The position numbers and the translations under genes were made by a program. Shown here piece by piece: positions 616-7,105 of a stretch of 64,000 nucleotides of DNA; the first letter of the stretch is position 1, and the number at the start of each line of letters is the position of its first letter. The notes beneath the pieces are model-generated. The model saw only the letters and a list, made by a program, of their open reading frames with translations, made no database searches and was not told where the DNA came from. Source of the DNA: an uncultured Thiohalocapsa sp. (GTDB lineage: Bacteria; Pseudomonadota; Gammaproteobacteria; Chromatiales; Chromatiaceae); assembly GCF_913062725.1 (NCBI RefSeq), contig NZ_CAJXWY010000016.1, positions 2,320-66,319 on the forward strand. Direction: 5' to 3'.

Positions 616-957
616 ATGACCAAGGTCAGCACGTACCGCCAGACCTGGGCGCGGCGGCTTGCGCTCGCGCCACTCGTGGTGCCGATCAAGGCCTACCAGT
701 ACATCATCTCGCCGCTGATCGGCCCGCGCTGTCGTTTCCTGCCCACCTGCTCCGATTATGCGTTGGAGGCGCTGGCCCGGCACGGTGCCGTGCGCGGTGG
801 CTGGCTCACGCTGCGGCGTCTCTGCCGTTGCCATCCCTGGGGCGACTCGGGCTTCGATCCGGTACCGCCTGTGTGTGGCGAAGCGCGGTGCGGGCAGCCC
901 GCCGAGGATACCGAAGCACCCGGCGACGCCACGCGTCCTGGCCCGCCTCGACGGTAA
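616..957 (+). CDS. yidD: Membrane protein insertion efficiency factor YidD
   Basis: [22 protein letters not shown]...[17 protein letters not shown] signature with three Cys; ATG at 616. Confidence 0.88.
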
Positions 958-1011: not shown

Positions 1012-2184
1012 ATGAGCGAGACCCACACCACCGAGGCCCAAGCACCGGCCCGGTCGCCGGTCCTGCCGCGTGCACAACACGACCCGGCCATGGAAGCCGC
1101 CATCCGTATCGGGCTCCTCGGTGCCCTGTTGCTGCTGTGTTATCGCATTATGGAGCCCTTCCTGGTGCCCATCGCCTGGGGCATTATCCTGGCGGTGGCG
1201 ACCTGGCCGGGCTACCGGCGCTTACTGGACCTGCTGGGTGGACGGCCTGCGCTCGCGTCGGTGGCGTTCGTGCTCATCGCGCTGTTGGTGCTGCTGGTAC
1301 CGGTGGCGATGCTGAGCGGCACCGTGGCCCATGGGGCGGAGTGGCTCGCGCAGGGATTCCAGAGTGGTGATCTGCAGCTGCCGGCGCCGCCCGATCTCAG
1401 CGGCGTGCCCCTCATCGGCCCGGATCTCGAGTCCCTCTGGCGCGACGCCTCGACCAACATCGAGGGCACCCTGCGCTCGCTCGAGCCGCAGCTGAAGGCG
1501 ATGGGCGGCTGGCTGCTACATCTTGCCACCAGTGCCGGCATGGGCCTGTTGCACTTCGTGCTGGCGATTTTCATCGCCGGCGTCCTGCTCGCGAAGAGCG
1601 ATACCGGCCGTCGCGCGGCCGATGCCATCGGCTGGCGCCTGGCGGGCAGACGCGGTCTGCGCTTCGTGCGCCTGGCGGAGGACGTGGTGCGCAGTGTCTC
1701 CCGCGGCATTCTCGGTGTGGCGTTGATCCAGGCGGTGCTGGCGGGGCTCGGCATGCTGGCCGCGGGCGTGCCCATGGCGGGGCTCTGGGCGCTGGTGGCG
1801 CTGCTGTTGGCGGTGGTGCAGATTGGCGCCTTTCCGGTGTTGCTGCCGGTCATCATCTATCTGTTCTATACCGCTGACCTCAGTACGGCGGTGCTGTTCG
1901 CCCTGTGGTCGCTGTTCGTCGGCTCCATCGACAATGTGCTCAAGCCCGTGCTGTTGGGCCGTGGCGCCGCGGTGCCCATGCCGGTGATCTTCATCGGCGC
2001 CATCGGCGGTTTCATCGCCGCCGGCATCATCGGCCTGTTCGTGGGTGCCGTGATCCTGGCCCTGGGCTATGAGCTGTTCCTGGCCTGGCTGGCGGCGGTG
2101 GCGCCGCCCGGCGTCGAACCGGGCGGCGCGGCTGTGGCATCCGCGCAGAAGCCGATGACCGGCGACGCGGCCATCGGCGACTGA
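1012..2184 (+). CDS. AI-2E family transporter (YdiK-like)
   Basis: Multi-TM protein with SIDNVLKPVLLG and GAIGGFIAAGIIGLFVGAVILAL motifs. Confidence 0.88.
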   Translation: MSETHTTEAQAPARSPVLPRAQHDPAMEAAIRIGLLGALLLLCYRIMEPFLVPIAWGIILAVATWPGYRRLLDLLGGRPALASVAFVLIALLVLLVPVAMLSGTVAHGAEWLAQGFQSGDLQLPAPPDLSGVPLIGPDLESLWRDASTNIEGTLRSLEPQLKAMGGWLLHLATSAGMGLLHFVLAIFIAGVLLAKSDTGRRAADAIGWRLAGRRGLRFVRLAEDVVRSVSRGILGVALIQAVLAGLGMLAAGVPMAGLWALVALLLAVVQIGAFPVLLPVIIYLFYTADLSTAVLFALWSLFVGSIDNVLKPVLLGRGAAVPMPVIFIGAIGGFIAAGIIGLFVGAVILALGYELFLAWLAAVAPPGVEPGGAAVASAQKPMTGDAAIGD

Positions 2185-2224
2185 GCCGCCTTCCGGGCCG
2201 TGCCTGTTGGCTTGGCTGGTGGCG

Positions 2225-2404
2225 TCAATGATGCGATTTCAGCAAGAGCCGCAGAATCTTGAAGTTGATGATCCAGAACCGAAAGAACTGCCAGACAATG
2301 CTGGTGCGCAGCCAACGGACGAGCTTGGTGGGCACCGGCGGATAGTAGGCCTGCTGATAGGGCTCTTTGTTTTTGGGCCTTGGTGTCAGGGTGTCGGTGG
2401 ACAT
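2225..2404 (-). CDS. 59-aa small amphipathic membrane-associated protein downstream of sqrD (absent from the ORF track)
   Basis: Manual translation: MSTDTLTPRPKNKEPYQQAYYPPVPTKLVRWLRTSIVWQFFRFWIINFKILRLLLKSHH*. GAGG RBS about 9-12 nt upstream; mostly G/C third codon positions; fills an otherwise empty gap, co-oriented with sqrD. Confidence 0.75.
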   Translation of the reverse strand: MSTDTLTPRPKNKEPYQQAYYPPVPTKLVRWLRTSIVWQFFRFWIINFKILRLLLKSHH

Positions 2405-2528
2405 GGCGCAACCTCTGCATGCATGACAGGATTAGGTGGATCCGATGCGCCCGCAGCCGGGCCGACCGCTGTGCGGTGCCGCCGGGGCCACGGGTGCTCG
2501 CCCGGGTGTAAGGCGCGTCCCAGTCCGC

Positions 2529-3986
2529 TCAGTCCGGGAGCACAGACCAGCCCGGGCGCAGCTTGGCCTGATACATGAAGACGTGGTGCAGGATGTACTT
2601 CATCCAGTGGCCGGCGAGACCGATCTCGCCGAAGGTCAGGTGCATGTCACGGCCGTACTCCGGGTAGGTCTCATAGTCCGGCACCACGGGGAACACCGTC
2701 ATGGTGGCCGCCGTGCCCTTGAGCACATGGAAGCCCGTGGAGGCGACACAGGCGGCGCCCATCTCCGCCATGGAGGCCGAGTGGCTCAGCTCGGTGGCGC
2801 CCTGCAGCAAATCGCGGATGTTTTCCGCCACGGCCTTGCCGATGGCCGCCGAGGGCATGCCCGTGCGCGGCGGCGTCGGACTGATGGGCGTGCCGCTGGG
2901 GCTCTTCATGGGCTTGCTGATGGGGTGGGGCGGTGCGAAGGCGATACCGATGGCGAAGATGTTCTTGTACTTGGGCGTCTGGTAGGTGCGCGGCCAATCG
3001 GCCTTGCTCCACTCCTCGTAGGGCTTCGGCGTGTAGTCGCCGTCCACCTTCATGAAGCCGTTGGGGGCGAAGAGCTCGGCGGTGATGTCGGTTCCGCCGG
3101 CGTCGAAGGCCTTGAGCGGTTGGCCGGCGAAGGGCGGAATCAGCATTGCGAAGTCGAACGCCAGCGTGTGCTCACTGCCGTCGAGCAGCTCGTACGTGAG
3201 CTCGCCGGGCTGCACCTGTTTGACGGCGGCACGCACGATCCACTCGATGCCACGCTCCACCATGAGCGACTCGGCGAACACCTTGCCGTTGGTGATGTAG
3301 CCACCGCGCTTGATATGCACGCCACCCATGCCGAAGTCGCCGAGCTCGTACTCGTTGCTGATCCACACCAGCCGGCCCTTGTCGCGCACACCGGCCTGGC
3401 GCAGCATGTGGTCGACGTTGTAGATGTACTCGAAGGCGGCGCCCTGACAGGTGCACATGCCGTGCCCCGTGCCGACCACGAAGGTCTTCTGCTGGCCCTG
3501 TCGCATGGCTGCGATGGCCGCCTGCAGCTGCTCGTTGGCGTGCAGCGCATGCTGCGGTGTGCATACGGAGGTGGTATAGCCGCCGTCCGGCCCCAGGCCC
3601 GGGGTGGCGCCGAAGTTGAGCTTGGGCCCCGTGGCGTTGACGAGATAGTCGTAAGACAGCGTCGTGGTCTCACCGGCGCGGTCCGGGTCCGTATACTCGA
3701 TGGTGACGTGCGGCTCCCGTATGGCGCCGCCGCCATCGGGGTGTATGGATAACGCCCGGGCCTGGTGGAACTTGACGTTGATCTTACGGTAGATCGGTGC
3801 GAGCGCGAAGGTGACCTGCTTTTCGGTCATCTCGCCGACACCCACCCAGATGTTCGATGGGATCCAGTTCCACTTGGCGTTCGGCGACACCACGCTGACC
3901 TCGTGCTCGTTACCGATCCACTTGCCGAGATAGCGGGCGGTTGTGTGTCCGGAAATGCCGGCACCCAAAATCAGAATACGTGCCAT
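2529..3986 (-). CDS. sqrD: Sulfide:quinone oxidoreductase, type IV (SqrD-like)
   Basis: GAGISG FAD motif; WNWIPSNIWVGVG; LVNATGPKL; SVCT; CTCQGAAFEY; PPRTGMPS; AACVAS; C-terminal amphipathic helix; 485 aa; strong GAGGAGG RBS. Confidence 0.85.
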   Translation of the reverse strand: MARILILGAGISGHTTARYLGKWIGNEHEVSVVSPNAKWNWIPSNIWVGVGEMTEKQVTFALAPIYRKINVKFHQARALSIHPDGGGAIREPHVTIEYTDPDRAGETTTLSYDYLVNATGPKLNFGATPGLGPDGGYTTSVCTPQHALHANEQLQAAIAAMRQGQQKTFVVGTGHGMCTCQGAAFEYIYNVDHMLRQAGVRDKGRLVWISNEYELGDFGMGGVHIKRGGYITNGKVFAESLMVERGIEWIVRAAVKQVQPGELTYELLDGSEHTLAFDFAMLIPPFAGQPLKAFDAGGTDITAELFAPNGFMKVDGDYTPKPYEEWSKADWPRTYQTPKYKNIFAIGIAFAPPHPISKPMKSPSGTPISPTPPRTGMPSAAIGKAVAENIRDLLQGATELSHSASMAEMGAACVASTGFHVLKGTAATMTVFPVVPDYETYPEYGRDMHLTFGEIGLAGHWMKYILHHVFMYQAKLRPGWSVLPD

Positions 3987-4190
3987 GGGGTGACCTCCTC
4001 TGATGATCGCCCGCCTACGCTACTCCCCTTGGCGTGCGCCGGACAAAGACACAGATCAATGGCGATGGAGCTTGAACGATTGGCTGGATTCAGGCTTTCG
4101 CGGCCGTGACCCTGTCAGCCGTGCGGCGGCCTCGCCGCGGGACTGACCGGGCGCCGAGACGTCCCCGGCCAACTGCGGCCACGATCGCCA

Positions 4191-5474
4191 CTACCCGCTG
4201 CGCCGCGCCCAGACCGCATGCAGCGGATCGGATAGGGTGAGCCTGCGCGCGTAGCGGTCGTCCGCGGGCCTCGGCAAACCGCGCAGGCTCCAGGTGTTGA
4301 GGGCCCGAAAGCAGTCCGTGGCGCGGAAATACTCCAGCACCAGCCCGGGACGCTCGAATGCGTGCAGTTCCTGCCAGAGGCGGATGGCCTTGGTGGGGAA
4401 CCAGCGATTGGAGAAGGTCATCACCGCGATGCCGCCCGGGCGGAGCACCCGGCCCAGCTCACGGAACACCGCGAAGGGGTTGGTGAGGTATTCCACCGAC
4501 ACGGTGCAAACGACGGCGTCGAAGGTTGCGTCCGCGCAAGGTAGGCGTGGCTCGGTGTTGAGGTCGTGGAGCATCCGCTGCGTGAGCGCCGGATTCCGTG
4601 CCAGCTCCTCCGCGTTCATGCCGACGCCGGCGACCTGTGCCGGCGCCAGCGCGGCGGGCAGGTGGGAATGCCAGCTGGCCATCAGATCCAGGATGCGGCT
4701 GCGGCGGGGGATGAGGCGGCCGTACAGTGCCCGGATCTCGGCGATGGCGGCGCTGTCCAGGTGGTCCACCAGCCGTGGGCGGGCGTAAAACCCCGGGTCG
4801 TCGTCATCCGCGCGCAGGAATGGCTCATCGGCGAAGAAATCCGTCGGCTGGTCCCGCCAGCGGCCCTGCATGCCGGGTCCGTTGGCGGTGAGCAGCGCGC
4901 GAAGGTCCTTGGGCGAGTCCTCCCCGGCGACGACCGGGCCCGTCGTCGGCGCGGAGATGCTGCCGGTACAAACCTCCAGGGGCTTGCCGGCCAGCGGGTG
5001 GTTGAAGTCGATCCTGAGGCTGTGGGTGTCGACATCGACGACGCGCAGGGGTGCGCCGCCGCCGGGCTGGTCCCGGGCGGTCACCAGGAGGCTTCCGGGG
5101 TAGAAGCGTCCCCGCCGCGGCTGTATCGGCCCCCCGCCGAGATCGCGCCCATCGAATGTGCTCGGTTGTACGGTCACGAGGCCTTGGGGATCCCAGTCCG
5201 CCAGTAGCTCGCCGGGCGCGAAGCGGTGGGTCGTGACAGCGCCTGCGGGCGTGTCCGTCACCGCTTGCGCCAGTGGCTCCGGCAGTACGGCCTGCGCCAG
5301 TTGCGCCCGGGGCAGGACGAGGCTGTCGCAGTGCTGCACGCCATCGCTGCGCCAATGCAGATCCAGGCGTAAATCGAGCGGTGGGGTCGCGATGTCGGGA
5401 ACGCTTGCGCGCGGGGCTCGGCGACCTGTGTCGGCCGCGGGCGCCCCGCTGCTCGCCGGGGACTGGCTCGTCAT
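4191..5474 (-). CDS. Fusion of FKBP/SlyD-like N-terminal domain and class I SAM-dependent methyltransferase
   Basis: LRIDFNHPLAGKPLEV (SlyD-type FKBP motif), followed by RLVDHLD..ILDLMASWHSHLP..FDAVVCTVSVEYL..TFSNRWFPTKA (methyltransferase). Confidence 0.75.
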   Translation of the reverse strand: MTSQSPASSGAPAADTGRRAPRASVPDIATPPLDLRLDLHWRSDGVQHCDSLVLPRAQLAQAVLPEPLAQAVTDTPAGAVTTHRFAPGELLADWDPQGLVTVQPSTFDGRDLGGGPIQPRRGRFYPGSLLVTARDQPGGGAPLRVVDVDTHSLRIDFNHPLAGKPLEVCTGSISAPTTGPVVAGEDSPKDLRALLTANGPGMQGRWRDQPTDFFADEPFLRADDDDPGFYARPRLVDHLDSAAIAEIRALYGRLIPRRSRILDLMASWHSHLPAALAPAQVAGVGMNAEELARNPALTQRMLHDLNTEPRLPCADATFDAVVCTVSVEYLTNPFAVFRELGRVLRPGGIAVMTFSNRWFPTKAIRLWQELHAFERPGLVLEYFRATDCFRALNTWSLRGLPRPADDRYARRLTLSDPLHAVWARRSG

Positions 5475-5539
5475 GACAGTGGCCGTCGCAGCTTCATCGG
5501 TATGCCAGTGGTGGCGGTGCCCGGCTCGGTCGACGCGGC

Positions 5540-7105
5540 TCAGGTGCTGGCTGCCGGTGCACGCTCACCGTGTTGCCGGCCCAGCAATGCACGCACCAAT
5601 GCCACCACCTGCAGCAGCAGGAACAGCGTGAACGGCAGGGCGCCGATGATGGCCACGGCCTTGTTCACATCGACATCGTTGCGCAGCAGGAGTCCGGCGG
5701 TGAGCGCCGTCAGTAACAGGCCCCAGCCGAGCTTGCTGGTCAGGTCCGGCTGGGTGCGGCCGCTCGACAGCATACCGAGCACAAAACAGGCCGAGTCCGC
5801 GCTGGTGACCATGAATATGAACAGGAGTGCGCACACCAGCCATGCCAGCAAGTTGCCCGATGGCAGGGCATCCAGCCACAGGAATAGGGGGCGTGTGTAA
5901 TGCTCGGCCAGGGATGCGTGCAGCAGCTCGCCCTCCGCCGCATCGTAGGCCAGGGCACCGCCGCCGAGCACGGCGAACCACAGCATGGAGACCAGCGTCG
6001 GCACCAGGATCGCGCCCAGCAGGAAAGTACGCAGCGTTCGCCCCCGGCTGATACGGGCGATGAAGAGCCCAACGAAGGGTGTCCAGGCGATCCACCAGAC
6101 CAGGTAGGTGATGGTCCAGTCGCCGGCCCAGTCGTCCGTGGCGGGCGCATCGGCGGCGTGCATACGGATGGGCGCCAGCGACCAGTCCGGCATGGCGGCG
6201 AGCCAGGTGCCCAACGCCTCGACGCCGAGCGCAGCCACCGCAGCGGGGTTGCCGAGTACCAGCAATGCCAGCATCAGCGCCAGCGCGGTGGCCAGATTCA
6301 GATTACTGAGCCAGCGGATGCCGCCGCCGATACCCGTGGCCGCCGAGCCCGTGAAGGCCGCCGCCAGGAGCGCCAGCAAGGCCAGCTGCAGGCCCATGCT
6401 GGACGCCGTCCAGCCGATGGCAGAGTCGATGCCCGCCTGCAGCAGGATGATGCTGTTGGCCAGCGCCCCGGCGACGCCGAAGATCACGGCGGCGACGCCC
6501 ACCAGATCCGCCGCGCGCCCGAGGGCGTGACACAGCGGCCCGGGGAGCCAGCCGCGCCAGCCGGCGGCGATGCTGGCGGATGGCGTCTCCGGGAGGCCGC
6601 GACGGGTATGAAACCAGGCGATGGCCAACGCCGCCAGCGCGTAGATGGCCCAGGCATGCAGGCCCCAGTGGAACCAGGTGATGGCCATGGCCGTCGCCTC
6701 GGCACCCGTCGTGCTCACGGCGCCGGCGGCCAGGGTTTGGCTGTGCGTCAGGGGCTCGGCGACGCCCCAGAAGACCAGGCCCGAGCCCATGCCCGCCGCG
6801 AAGAGCATGGCGAGCCAGGACAGCAGACTAAACTCTGGTGTCGCCTCCGGTGGGCCCAGGCGAAGTCGCCCCGCCGGGCTCACGACGATCAGCGAGCCGA
6901 GCACGAGCAGGGCGGTGGCGAACAGCAGCACCAGCCAGCCGGCGGTATCCACGATCGCGCCGGTGATGGCGCCGATGGCGCTGGTGGCGGCCGCCGGCCA
7001 GCCCAGGATCCACAAGGTGAGCAGGGCGACCACCGCCAGCGCCGCTCGGGTCCCGCGACGTCGGTCAGCGACAAGCTGTGGCTGGCTCGGGGGCGGTGTG
7101 TGCAT
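5540..7105 (-). CDS. BCCT family (betaine/carnitine/choline) transporter
   Basis: SWLAMLFAAGMGSGLVFWGVAEP; HWGLHAWAIY; WTITYLVWWIAWTPFVGLFIARISRGRT. Confidence 0.93.
   Translation of the reverse strand: MHTPPPSQPQLVADRRRGTRAALAVVALLTLWILGWPAAATSAIGAITGAIVDTAGWLVLLFATALLVLGSLIVVSPAGRLRLGPPEATPEFSLLSWLAMLFAAGMGSGLVFWGVAEPLTHSQTLAAGAVSTTGAEATAMAITWFHWGLHAWAIYALAALAIAWFHTRRGLPETPSASIAAGWRGWLPGPLCHALGRAADLVGVAAVIFGVAGALANSIILLQAGIDSAIGWTASSMGLQLALLALLAAAFTGSAATGIGGGIRWLSNLNLATALALMLALLVLGNPAAVAALGVEALGTWLAAMPDWSLAPIRMHAADAPATDDWAGDWTITYLVWWIAWTPFVGLFIARISRGRTLRTFLLGAILVPTLVSMLWFAVLGGGALAYDAAEGELLHASLAEHYTRPLFLWLDALPSGNLLAWLVCALLFIFMVTSADSACFVLGMLSSGRTQPDLTSKLGWGLLLTALTAGLLLRNDVDVNKAVAIIGALPFTLFLLLQVVALVRALLGRQHGERAPAAST

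Follow-up and report, generated by a model that had tools for sequence, protein, structure and literature searches.

The window analysed here is the whole 64,000-nt stretch of contig NZ_CAJXWY010000016.1 from an uncultured Thiohalocapsa sp. Near its start, a gene for a sulfide:quinone oxidoreductase (SQR), sqrD, is followed on the same strand by a short open reading frame (ORF) for a microprotein (Table 1), which a first-pass annotation had singled out as a candidate accessory subunit of the enzyme. The local description given there is reproduced: the translation is identical to the quoted peptide, sqrD lies at the given distance on the same strand, and the GAGG ribosome-binding site is found ahead of the ATG. 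The microprotein gene is convergent with an AI-2E family transporter gene (1012..2184, plus strand). Other neighbours in the window are common only to Thiohalocapsa loci. Upstream of sqrD, a minus-strand gene (4191..5474) encodes a 427-aa protein with a C-terminal SAM methyltransferase domain and an N-terminal part of ~240 aa without a clear family; it is conserved at this position only in Thiohalocapsa-group loci (52–68% identical). Within the first 957 nt of the window, reading by eye suggests the 3' part of a ureG-like urease accessory GTPase gene (up to 608) and, at about 616..957, a small yidD-like ORF rich in Cys.

The spacer between the two genes is longer than that of most lineages (about 10–100 nt). 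A promoter/terminator scan found no promoter-like site and no minus-strand terminator in the spacer, which also shows no unusual RNA structure (fold z-score −0.10). The sole terminator-like match of the scan lies on the plus strand, opposite to the operon, and is irrelevant to the sqrD-microprotein unit. Roughly 50 nt past the microprotein stop codon, within the 3' end of the AI-2E transporter gene, a GC-rich hairpin without a U tract is predicted that could mark the transcript end of the sqrD-microprotein mRNA. This hairpin sits between two convergent transcription units and may terminate in both directions.

Table 1 Features of the sqrD-microprotein locus and of the encoded peptide (nucleotide positions refer to the window, residue numbers to the microprotein).
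Feature	Position	Strand	Description and basis
sqrD, type IV sulfide:quinone oxidoreductase	2529..3986	−	485 aa; Pyr_redox_2, solved SQRs, cysteines
Spacer between sqrD and microprotein gene	2405..2528	−	124 nt
Shine-Dalgarno-like GAGG	2412..2415	−	7 nt 5' of ATG; read from sequence
Microprotein gene	2225..2404	−	59 aa; ORF and translation, homologs, alignments
GC-rich hairpin (predicted)	2151..2178	−	z-score −2.57; 2 of 200 shuffles fold as well
Microprotein N-terminus	residues 1–10		variable
Microprotein motif	residues 11–26		KNKEPYQQAYYPPVPT; invariant in Proteobacteria
Microprotein helix	residues 27–57		basic; family-wide invariant P25, R33, Q39, R42, N47
Microprotein C-terminus			KSHH

The base composition of the ORF is coding-like in its frame, with GC contents of 0.45/0.40/0.77 by codon position compared with 0.60/0.46/0.88 in sqrD. 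The codon usage had been called host-like; the GC3 of 0.77 is somewhat lower than the 0.85–0.88 of the neighbours. GC content dips to 0.56–0.58 over the ORF against ~0.68 in its surroundings, in line with the Lys, Asn, Phe, Ile, and Tyr that it encodes. ORFs of 59 codons are commonplace in window DNA of 68% GC, and dozens of spurious ones are listed; the status of the ORF as a gene is therefore decided by comparative data, i.e., by its conservation and not by its existence.

Homologs of the peptide are numerous. A search of 5.8 billion proteins returned 97 clusters at E values of 1e-13 to 1e-33, all 51–78 aa long, a profile search run exhaustively over 1.84 billion representatives returned 277 clusters (at 50% identity) of 40–115 aa at E ≤ 1e-3, and a further profile search seeded with distant members returned 542 clusters. 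In the alignments, N12–T26 (NKEPYQQAYYPPVPT) is essentially invariant among proteobacterial members, five residues are invariant over the whole family (Table 1), and family-wide conservation reaches 90% or more at Y16, T26, W38, F43, K49, and H58. Most of the variation among 70 equal-length genes falls in the third codon position (entropy by position 0.54/0.34/1.29), and pN/pS, estimated after Nei-Gojobori with synonymous sites saturated, is 0.22 overall, with values of 0.047 for the motif and 0.31 for the helix. An ATG lies 9–51 nt ahead of the motif in nearly all loci, and in 150 of 163 related loci a Shine-Dalgarno-like motif is found 5' of a candidate ATG. Judged from these comparisons, the microprotein gene is real and under strong purifying selection, and both the conserved homologs and the selection by which the first-pass annotation proposed to check its candidate are present. 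The opposite view, that the ORF arose by chance in GC-rich DNA and is no gene, draws on the many ORFs of similar size in the window that are spurious, but is already refuted by the conservation data: hundreds of homolog clusters, the low pN/pS, the conserved start codon and ribosome-binding site, and a motif that is invariant in amino acids even though synonymous sites are saturated all stand against it.

The annotation had also described the microprotein as hidden, which goes too far. Neither Pfam nor NCBIfam contains a match to the peptide even at E ≤ 1, and its homologs are all termed hypothetical or uncharacterized, except for one JGI label ('transposase-like protein') on a single homolog (P0047). 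However, many RefSeq genomes do annotate the gene as a hypothetical protein, among them that of Allochromatium vinosum (WP_012971339.1, UniProt D3RVQ4, hypothetical/uncharacterized), and the microprotein is overlooked rather than hidden.

The family contains a few irregular members. One large subfamily (L088–L167) carries '..F..TMIPG.FARKMRTCVIWQFIRF..' instead of the PY..YYPP motif; many of its loci derive from one sample set (contig names Ga02568xx), and in 27 loci a conserved gene of ~284 aa lies 3' of the pair. A 53-aa homolog (P0098) is a frameshifted peptide. An apparent fusion of 424 aa (P0511) was rejected as an unrelated repeat-rich protein that shares a 90%-identity cluster with 53-aa peptides through a clustering artefact. 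In a metagenomic ORF of 114 aa (P0226), the SqrD C-terminus continues via a 12-residue linker into the peptide, the stop codon having been changed to Ser. Such a reading frame stems from a sequencing error or else represents a rare natural fusion, which, if real, would support a physical association of the two proteins.

In purple and green sulfur bacteria, type IV SqrD is a main enzyme of sulfide oxidation; we know of no solved structure of it. The SqrD of the window matches Pyr_redox_2 (E = 7e-10), the FAD-dependent pyridine nucleotide-disulfide oxidoreductase fold, as well as the solved type I SQRs 3HYV and 3SZ0 (E values of 1e-38 to 2e-44). It starts directly with the FAD-binding fold and has no signal peptide. 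Its 'TCQGAAFE' (within 'MCTCQGAAFE') aligns with 'SCFGPAYE' and its 'GAACVAS' (Cys413) with 'SAICIAD', so that both cysteines match the catalytic cysteines of type I SQRs (equivalents of Cys156 and Cys347 in Aquifex aeolicus); both are invariant in 30 SqrD homologs. Relative to the type I enzymes, SqrD carries insertions at residues 224–231 and about 294–332, and 72 residues follow its third cysteine compared with 83 in A. aeolicus and 78 in Acidithiobacillus ferrooxidans.

Assignment to a type follows from several features. Type IV enzymes have Ala before the third Cys in place of Val, and in the type VI enzyme TrSqrF the third Cys lies at residue 332 and the C-terminus is short (PMC9666304). 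The window SqrD has Ala412-Cys413 in a protein of 485 aa. Alvin_2145 of A. vinosum has been assigned to type IV SqrD, and Thiococcus, Thioflavicoccus, and Marichromatium are listed as sqrD carriers (PMC3368242). The SQRs of these three genera and of Allochromatium are 76–81% identical to the window SqrD, and the A. vinosum peptide (ADC63067.1) is identical in two Allochromatium-type loci, where it lies 3' of a 485-aa SQR. Because of the Ala412-Cys413 pair, these identities, and the match of the A. vinosum peptide, we accept the sqrD label of the first-pass annotation, by which the window SQR is classed on sequence grounds as type IV and not as type VI or type I.

The association of the two genes was followed from both sides. 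A scan with one genome per species found a relative of the peptide in 205 genomes; among the best 80 of these 205 loci, 79 have an SqrD ortholog (485 aa, 70–92% identical) immediately 5' on the same strand, and in the lone exception the contig ends 188 nt upstream. These 80 loci belong to Gamma-, Beta-, and Zetaproteobacteria, including Chromatiaceae, Thiothrix, Granulosicoccus, Gallionella, Sideroxydans, Nitrosomonadales, Parasulfuritortus, Mariprofundus, and Ghiorsea, and the top peptide match among them is that of Thiohalocapsa halophila (88%). Distant members (37–54% identical), which lack the EPYQQAYY motif, occur in Bacteroidetes, Verrucomicrobiae, Ignavibacteriales, and on unplaced contigs. 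All seven that were looked up show the same arrangement, the peptide gene starting 2–60 nt past, or overlapping, that of an SqrD ortholog of 484–485 aa (59–65% identical over its full length). Starting from SqrD instead, we took the best 80 of more than 592 metagenome matches, 60–91% identical to a verrucomicrobial SqrD, and a peptide HMM placed the peptide gene 3' on the same strand in 76 of 76 evaluable loci. The other four are cut by contig ends less than 80 nt after sqrD, and no locus lacks the peptide. The linkage of the homologs to type IV sqr, which the annotation had anticipated, is thus confirmed in both directions (79/80 from the peptide, 76/76 from SqrD), for SqrD homologs of at least ~60% identity; lower ones, possibly including CT0117 of Chlorobiaceae, lie outside this sampling. 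Judged from gene order, the microprotein is linked to sqrD in all evaluable loci examined, across several phyla.

All-against-all clustering of ORFs from 168 loci revealed no third conserved gene beside the pair, which makes the conserved unit one of two genes; the next real cluster of neighbours is present in 27 of the 168 loci, larger clusters being alternative-frame artefacts inside sqrD. Pairwise distances of SqrD and of the peptide correlate (r = 0.78, 150 pairs), and none of 999 Mantel permutations reached this value. Its small size, basic charge, and hydrophobicity, which it has in common with many membrane-active peptides, would also suit a membrane peptide that has no function with SqrD and is only carried on the same transcript, e.g., one of a stress or toxin-like kind. 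The linkage and conservation data make such an origin very improbable, however, as the two-way linkage is complete in evaluable loci of several phyla whose flanks are completely shuffled, the peptide co-diverges with SqrD, and no copy away from sqrD was found among the loci examined.

Individual loci have features of their own. In a Gallionellaceae MAG (L040), a second SQR-like gene (2811–4010), 29% identical to SqrD, lies directly 3' of the pair, which places two sqr types in one cluster. Two Verrucomicrobiae loci (L083, positions 1038–5560, and L084) carry a run of genes for an ECF sigma factor, a zf-HC2 anti-sigma factor, a rhodanese, SqrD, the microprotein, a rubrerythrin, and a DUF2231 protein, possibly a regulon that responds to sulfide or redox stress.

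In three metatranscriptomes, RNA contigs run unbroken over the 3' end of sqrD, the spacer, and the peptide ORF (X13, 1501 nt, positions 4925–6425; X14, 417 nt, 5748–6164; X10, a 457-nt contig, 5892–6165). The relatives spanned by them are close to Allochromatium warmingii (L030) and Thiocapsa roseopersicina (L033). All seven differences between the RNA contigs and their references within the peptide ORF are synonymous third-position changes. The peptide ORF is therefore co-transcribed with sqrD in relatives, as read from metatranscriptome contigs that are assemblies and may contain carried-over DNA. The single metatranscriptome for the organism of the window (X9) contains fragments of relatives' sqr, none of them over the peptide ORF, and is uninformative.

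An AlphaFold2 model of the peptide built from 63 sequences shows residues 1–26 as non-helical (pLDDT about 56–61 over residues 1–20) and residues 27–57 as one helix (pLDDT 84–96). The long amphipathic helix described in the first-pass annotation is borne out in part: the helix is rich in W/F/I/L and K/R and the peptide ends in HH, but the hydrophobic moment is strong only locally, with up to 0.7 in an 11-mer and 0.33 over the whole 31-residue helix, a value reached by 18% of shuffles. The peptide carries a net charge of +8. Its invariant residues are spread over all faces of the helical wheel, which suggests, in the modelled helix, packing against a protein rather than simply lying on a membrane. 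A transmembrane helix was considered for the hydrophobic stretch 34–55 and is unlikely because this stretch carries R42, K49, and R52, the first of them invariant family-wide; the helix is more likely interfacial or packed against a protein. Two further ideas were discarded: the peptide lacks the twin-arginine motif expected of a Tat-signal 'hitchhiker', and a PqqA-like precursor, suggested by the Glu/Tyr motif, would be accompanied by a modifying enzyme, none of which is conserved nearby. A 49-member profile of the peptide compared with all PDB chains gave no match at E ≤ 10, the C-termini of solved SQRs included.

The AlphaFold2 model of SqrD alone (30 sequences, pTM 0.75) has pLDDT values below 50 at residues 42–53, 215–233, 352–356, 370–375, and most of 411–485. 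It contains a single helix after Cys413 (457–475), in a C-terminal part whose pLDDT below 50 is too poor for detailed claims. This low-confidence picture of one C-terminal helix is at odds with the two C-terminal helices described for SQRs other than type VI (PMC9666304), and would leave room for a helix from a separate protein. Covariation between the two proteins (weighted MI-APC, 150 pairs), which with an effective number of ~65 sequences and confounding by phylogeny is suggestive only, places the top pairs at SqrD residues 213–252 and 380–485; no top pair lies within SqrD 51–150, which has 63 variable columns. The low-confidence segments 215–233, 411–436, and 448–485 partly coincide with an SqrD-specific insertion and with the top covarying columns, and segments 42–53, 352–356, and 370–375 show no covariation with the peptide. 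The models thereby suggest that the covarying low-confidence segments of SqrD become ordered on binding of the peptide.

On the whole, the data argue that type IV SQR probably works with a small partner protein. The explanation that we favor, at a probability of roughly 55%, is that the microprotein is an obligate small partner of type IV SQR, probably a stably bound subunit, encoded with it in a two-gene operon. On this reading, the peptide would be translated, bind SqrD physically, be located at the membrane, and have a role in the anchor or quinone site. Its Pro/Tyr-rich stretch (..PY.Q.YYPP.PT) would dock in extended form on SqrD, and the basic, aromatic-rich helix of ~30 residues would pack on the C-terminal helix of SqrD (about 457–475) and on SqrD-specific loops, i.e., on the C-terminal, membrane-facing domain at the membrane surface. 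Together, peptide and SqrD would complete the membrane-anchoring and quinone-access domain for which other SQR types use their own C-terminal helices. A stronger version is more tentative, and we would give it less than even odds: type IV SQR would differ from all SQRs characterised to date, which are single polypeptides, in being an obligate two-subunit enzyme, with the microprotein contributing to the site of quinone binding and membrane docking. If it were true, SqrD alone would be inactive or mislocalised, and biochemical difficulty with this class of enzymes would be understandable.

The peptide might instead act transiently, as an assembly or targeting factor outside the mature enzyme that assists folding, FAD uptake, insertion at the membrane face, or signal-less export of SqrD. 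Linkage, co-divergence, and co-transcription support this role on the same basis as that of a subunit, and an SqrD that begins with the FAD-binding fold and lacks a signal peptide would suit it. We nevertheless consider it unlikely, as the peptide itself has neither a twin-arginine nor a Sec-type signal, and a permanent, tight interface would account better for the extreme conservation of the linear 16-residue motif and of positions on every side of the helix. Less probable still is a regulatory or product-handling role, in which the peptide would modulate SqrD or guide polysulfide or sulfur-globule contact without anchoring the enzyme. In its favor, the occurrence of sqrD correlates with intracellular sulfur globules (PMC3368242). 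Anionic polysulfide could be bound by the +8 charge, the invariant Arg, Gln, and Asn residues, and the conserved C-terminal His of the peptide. However, the pair is also found in Bacteroidetes, Verrucomicrobiae, Gallionellaceae, and Zetaproteobacteria, which are not known as globule-forming phototrophs. The same data fit both of these roles as well as that of a subunit, and cannot separate the three.

SQRs are treated as single-gene enzymes in sulfur-cycle genomics and biochemistry. The literature searched, papers on SQRs included, names no small partner of any SQR, and queries for CT0116, CT0118, Alvin_2144, Alvin_2146, and the peptide accessions yielded no paper on the peptide, and so no proteomic or ribosome-profiling evidence for it. 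The microprotein would represent a new protein family in a role of known kind, as the small partner of enzymes that have been regarded as single-subunit. Type IV SqrD was also seen here in many chemolithotrophs. To yield active enzyme, sqrD and the peptide gene are probably best expressed together, and in annotation the two-gene signature would reliably identify type IV SQR. The current picture of the membrane and quinone site of SQRs would need revision, and an unnamed microprotein family distributed over several phyla gains a partner that is clear and can be put to the test. For mass spectrometry, the tryptic peptide EPYQQAYYPPVPT[K/GFTR] offers a convenient target.

One functional parallel to the proposed subunit may lie within the SQRs themselves. 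The type I enzymes of A. aeolicus (3HYV) and A. ferrooxidans (3T31) are anchored by C-terminal amphipathic helices, which also line the quinone channel. Like these, the peptide is helical, aromatic-rich, basic, and associated with an SQR, and on the proposed model it would do the same job in membrane docking and quinone access, an equivalence drawn from the model. Unlike them, it is encoded by a separate gene, shares no detectable sequence similarity with any solved SQR chain, and has an additional, invariant Pro/Tyr motif that resembles a docking element.

Small subunits are well known from respiratory and related enzymes, e.g., CydX of cytochrome bd, CcoQ of cbb3 oxidase, and the small Pet subunits of cytochrome b6f. 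The peptide resembles them in its length of ~50 aa, in adjoining the gene of the catalytic protein in an operon, in being often missed or left without a name, and in its co-conservation with the enzyme; adjacency, co-transcription, and co-conservation are all seen in this gene pair. The helix differs, however: CydX, CcoQ, and the Pet subunits are single transmembrane helices on integral membrane complexes, whereas the hydrophobic stretch of the peptide carries three charged residues and its partner is a monotopic flavoprotein. Pfam and NCBIfam comparisons indicate no sequence relationship to these subunits. The anchors SdhC and SdhD of succinate:quinone reductase are likewise without homology to the peptide, and differ from it as multi-helix, integral, and often haem-binding proteins. 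The concept would nonetheless be shared, in that a separate hydrophobic polypeptide of small size links a flavoprotein of soluble type with both membrane and quinone.
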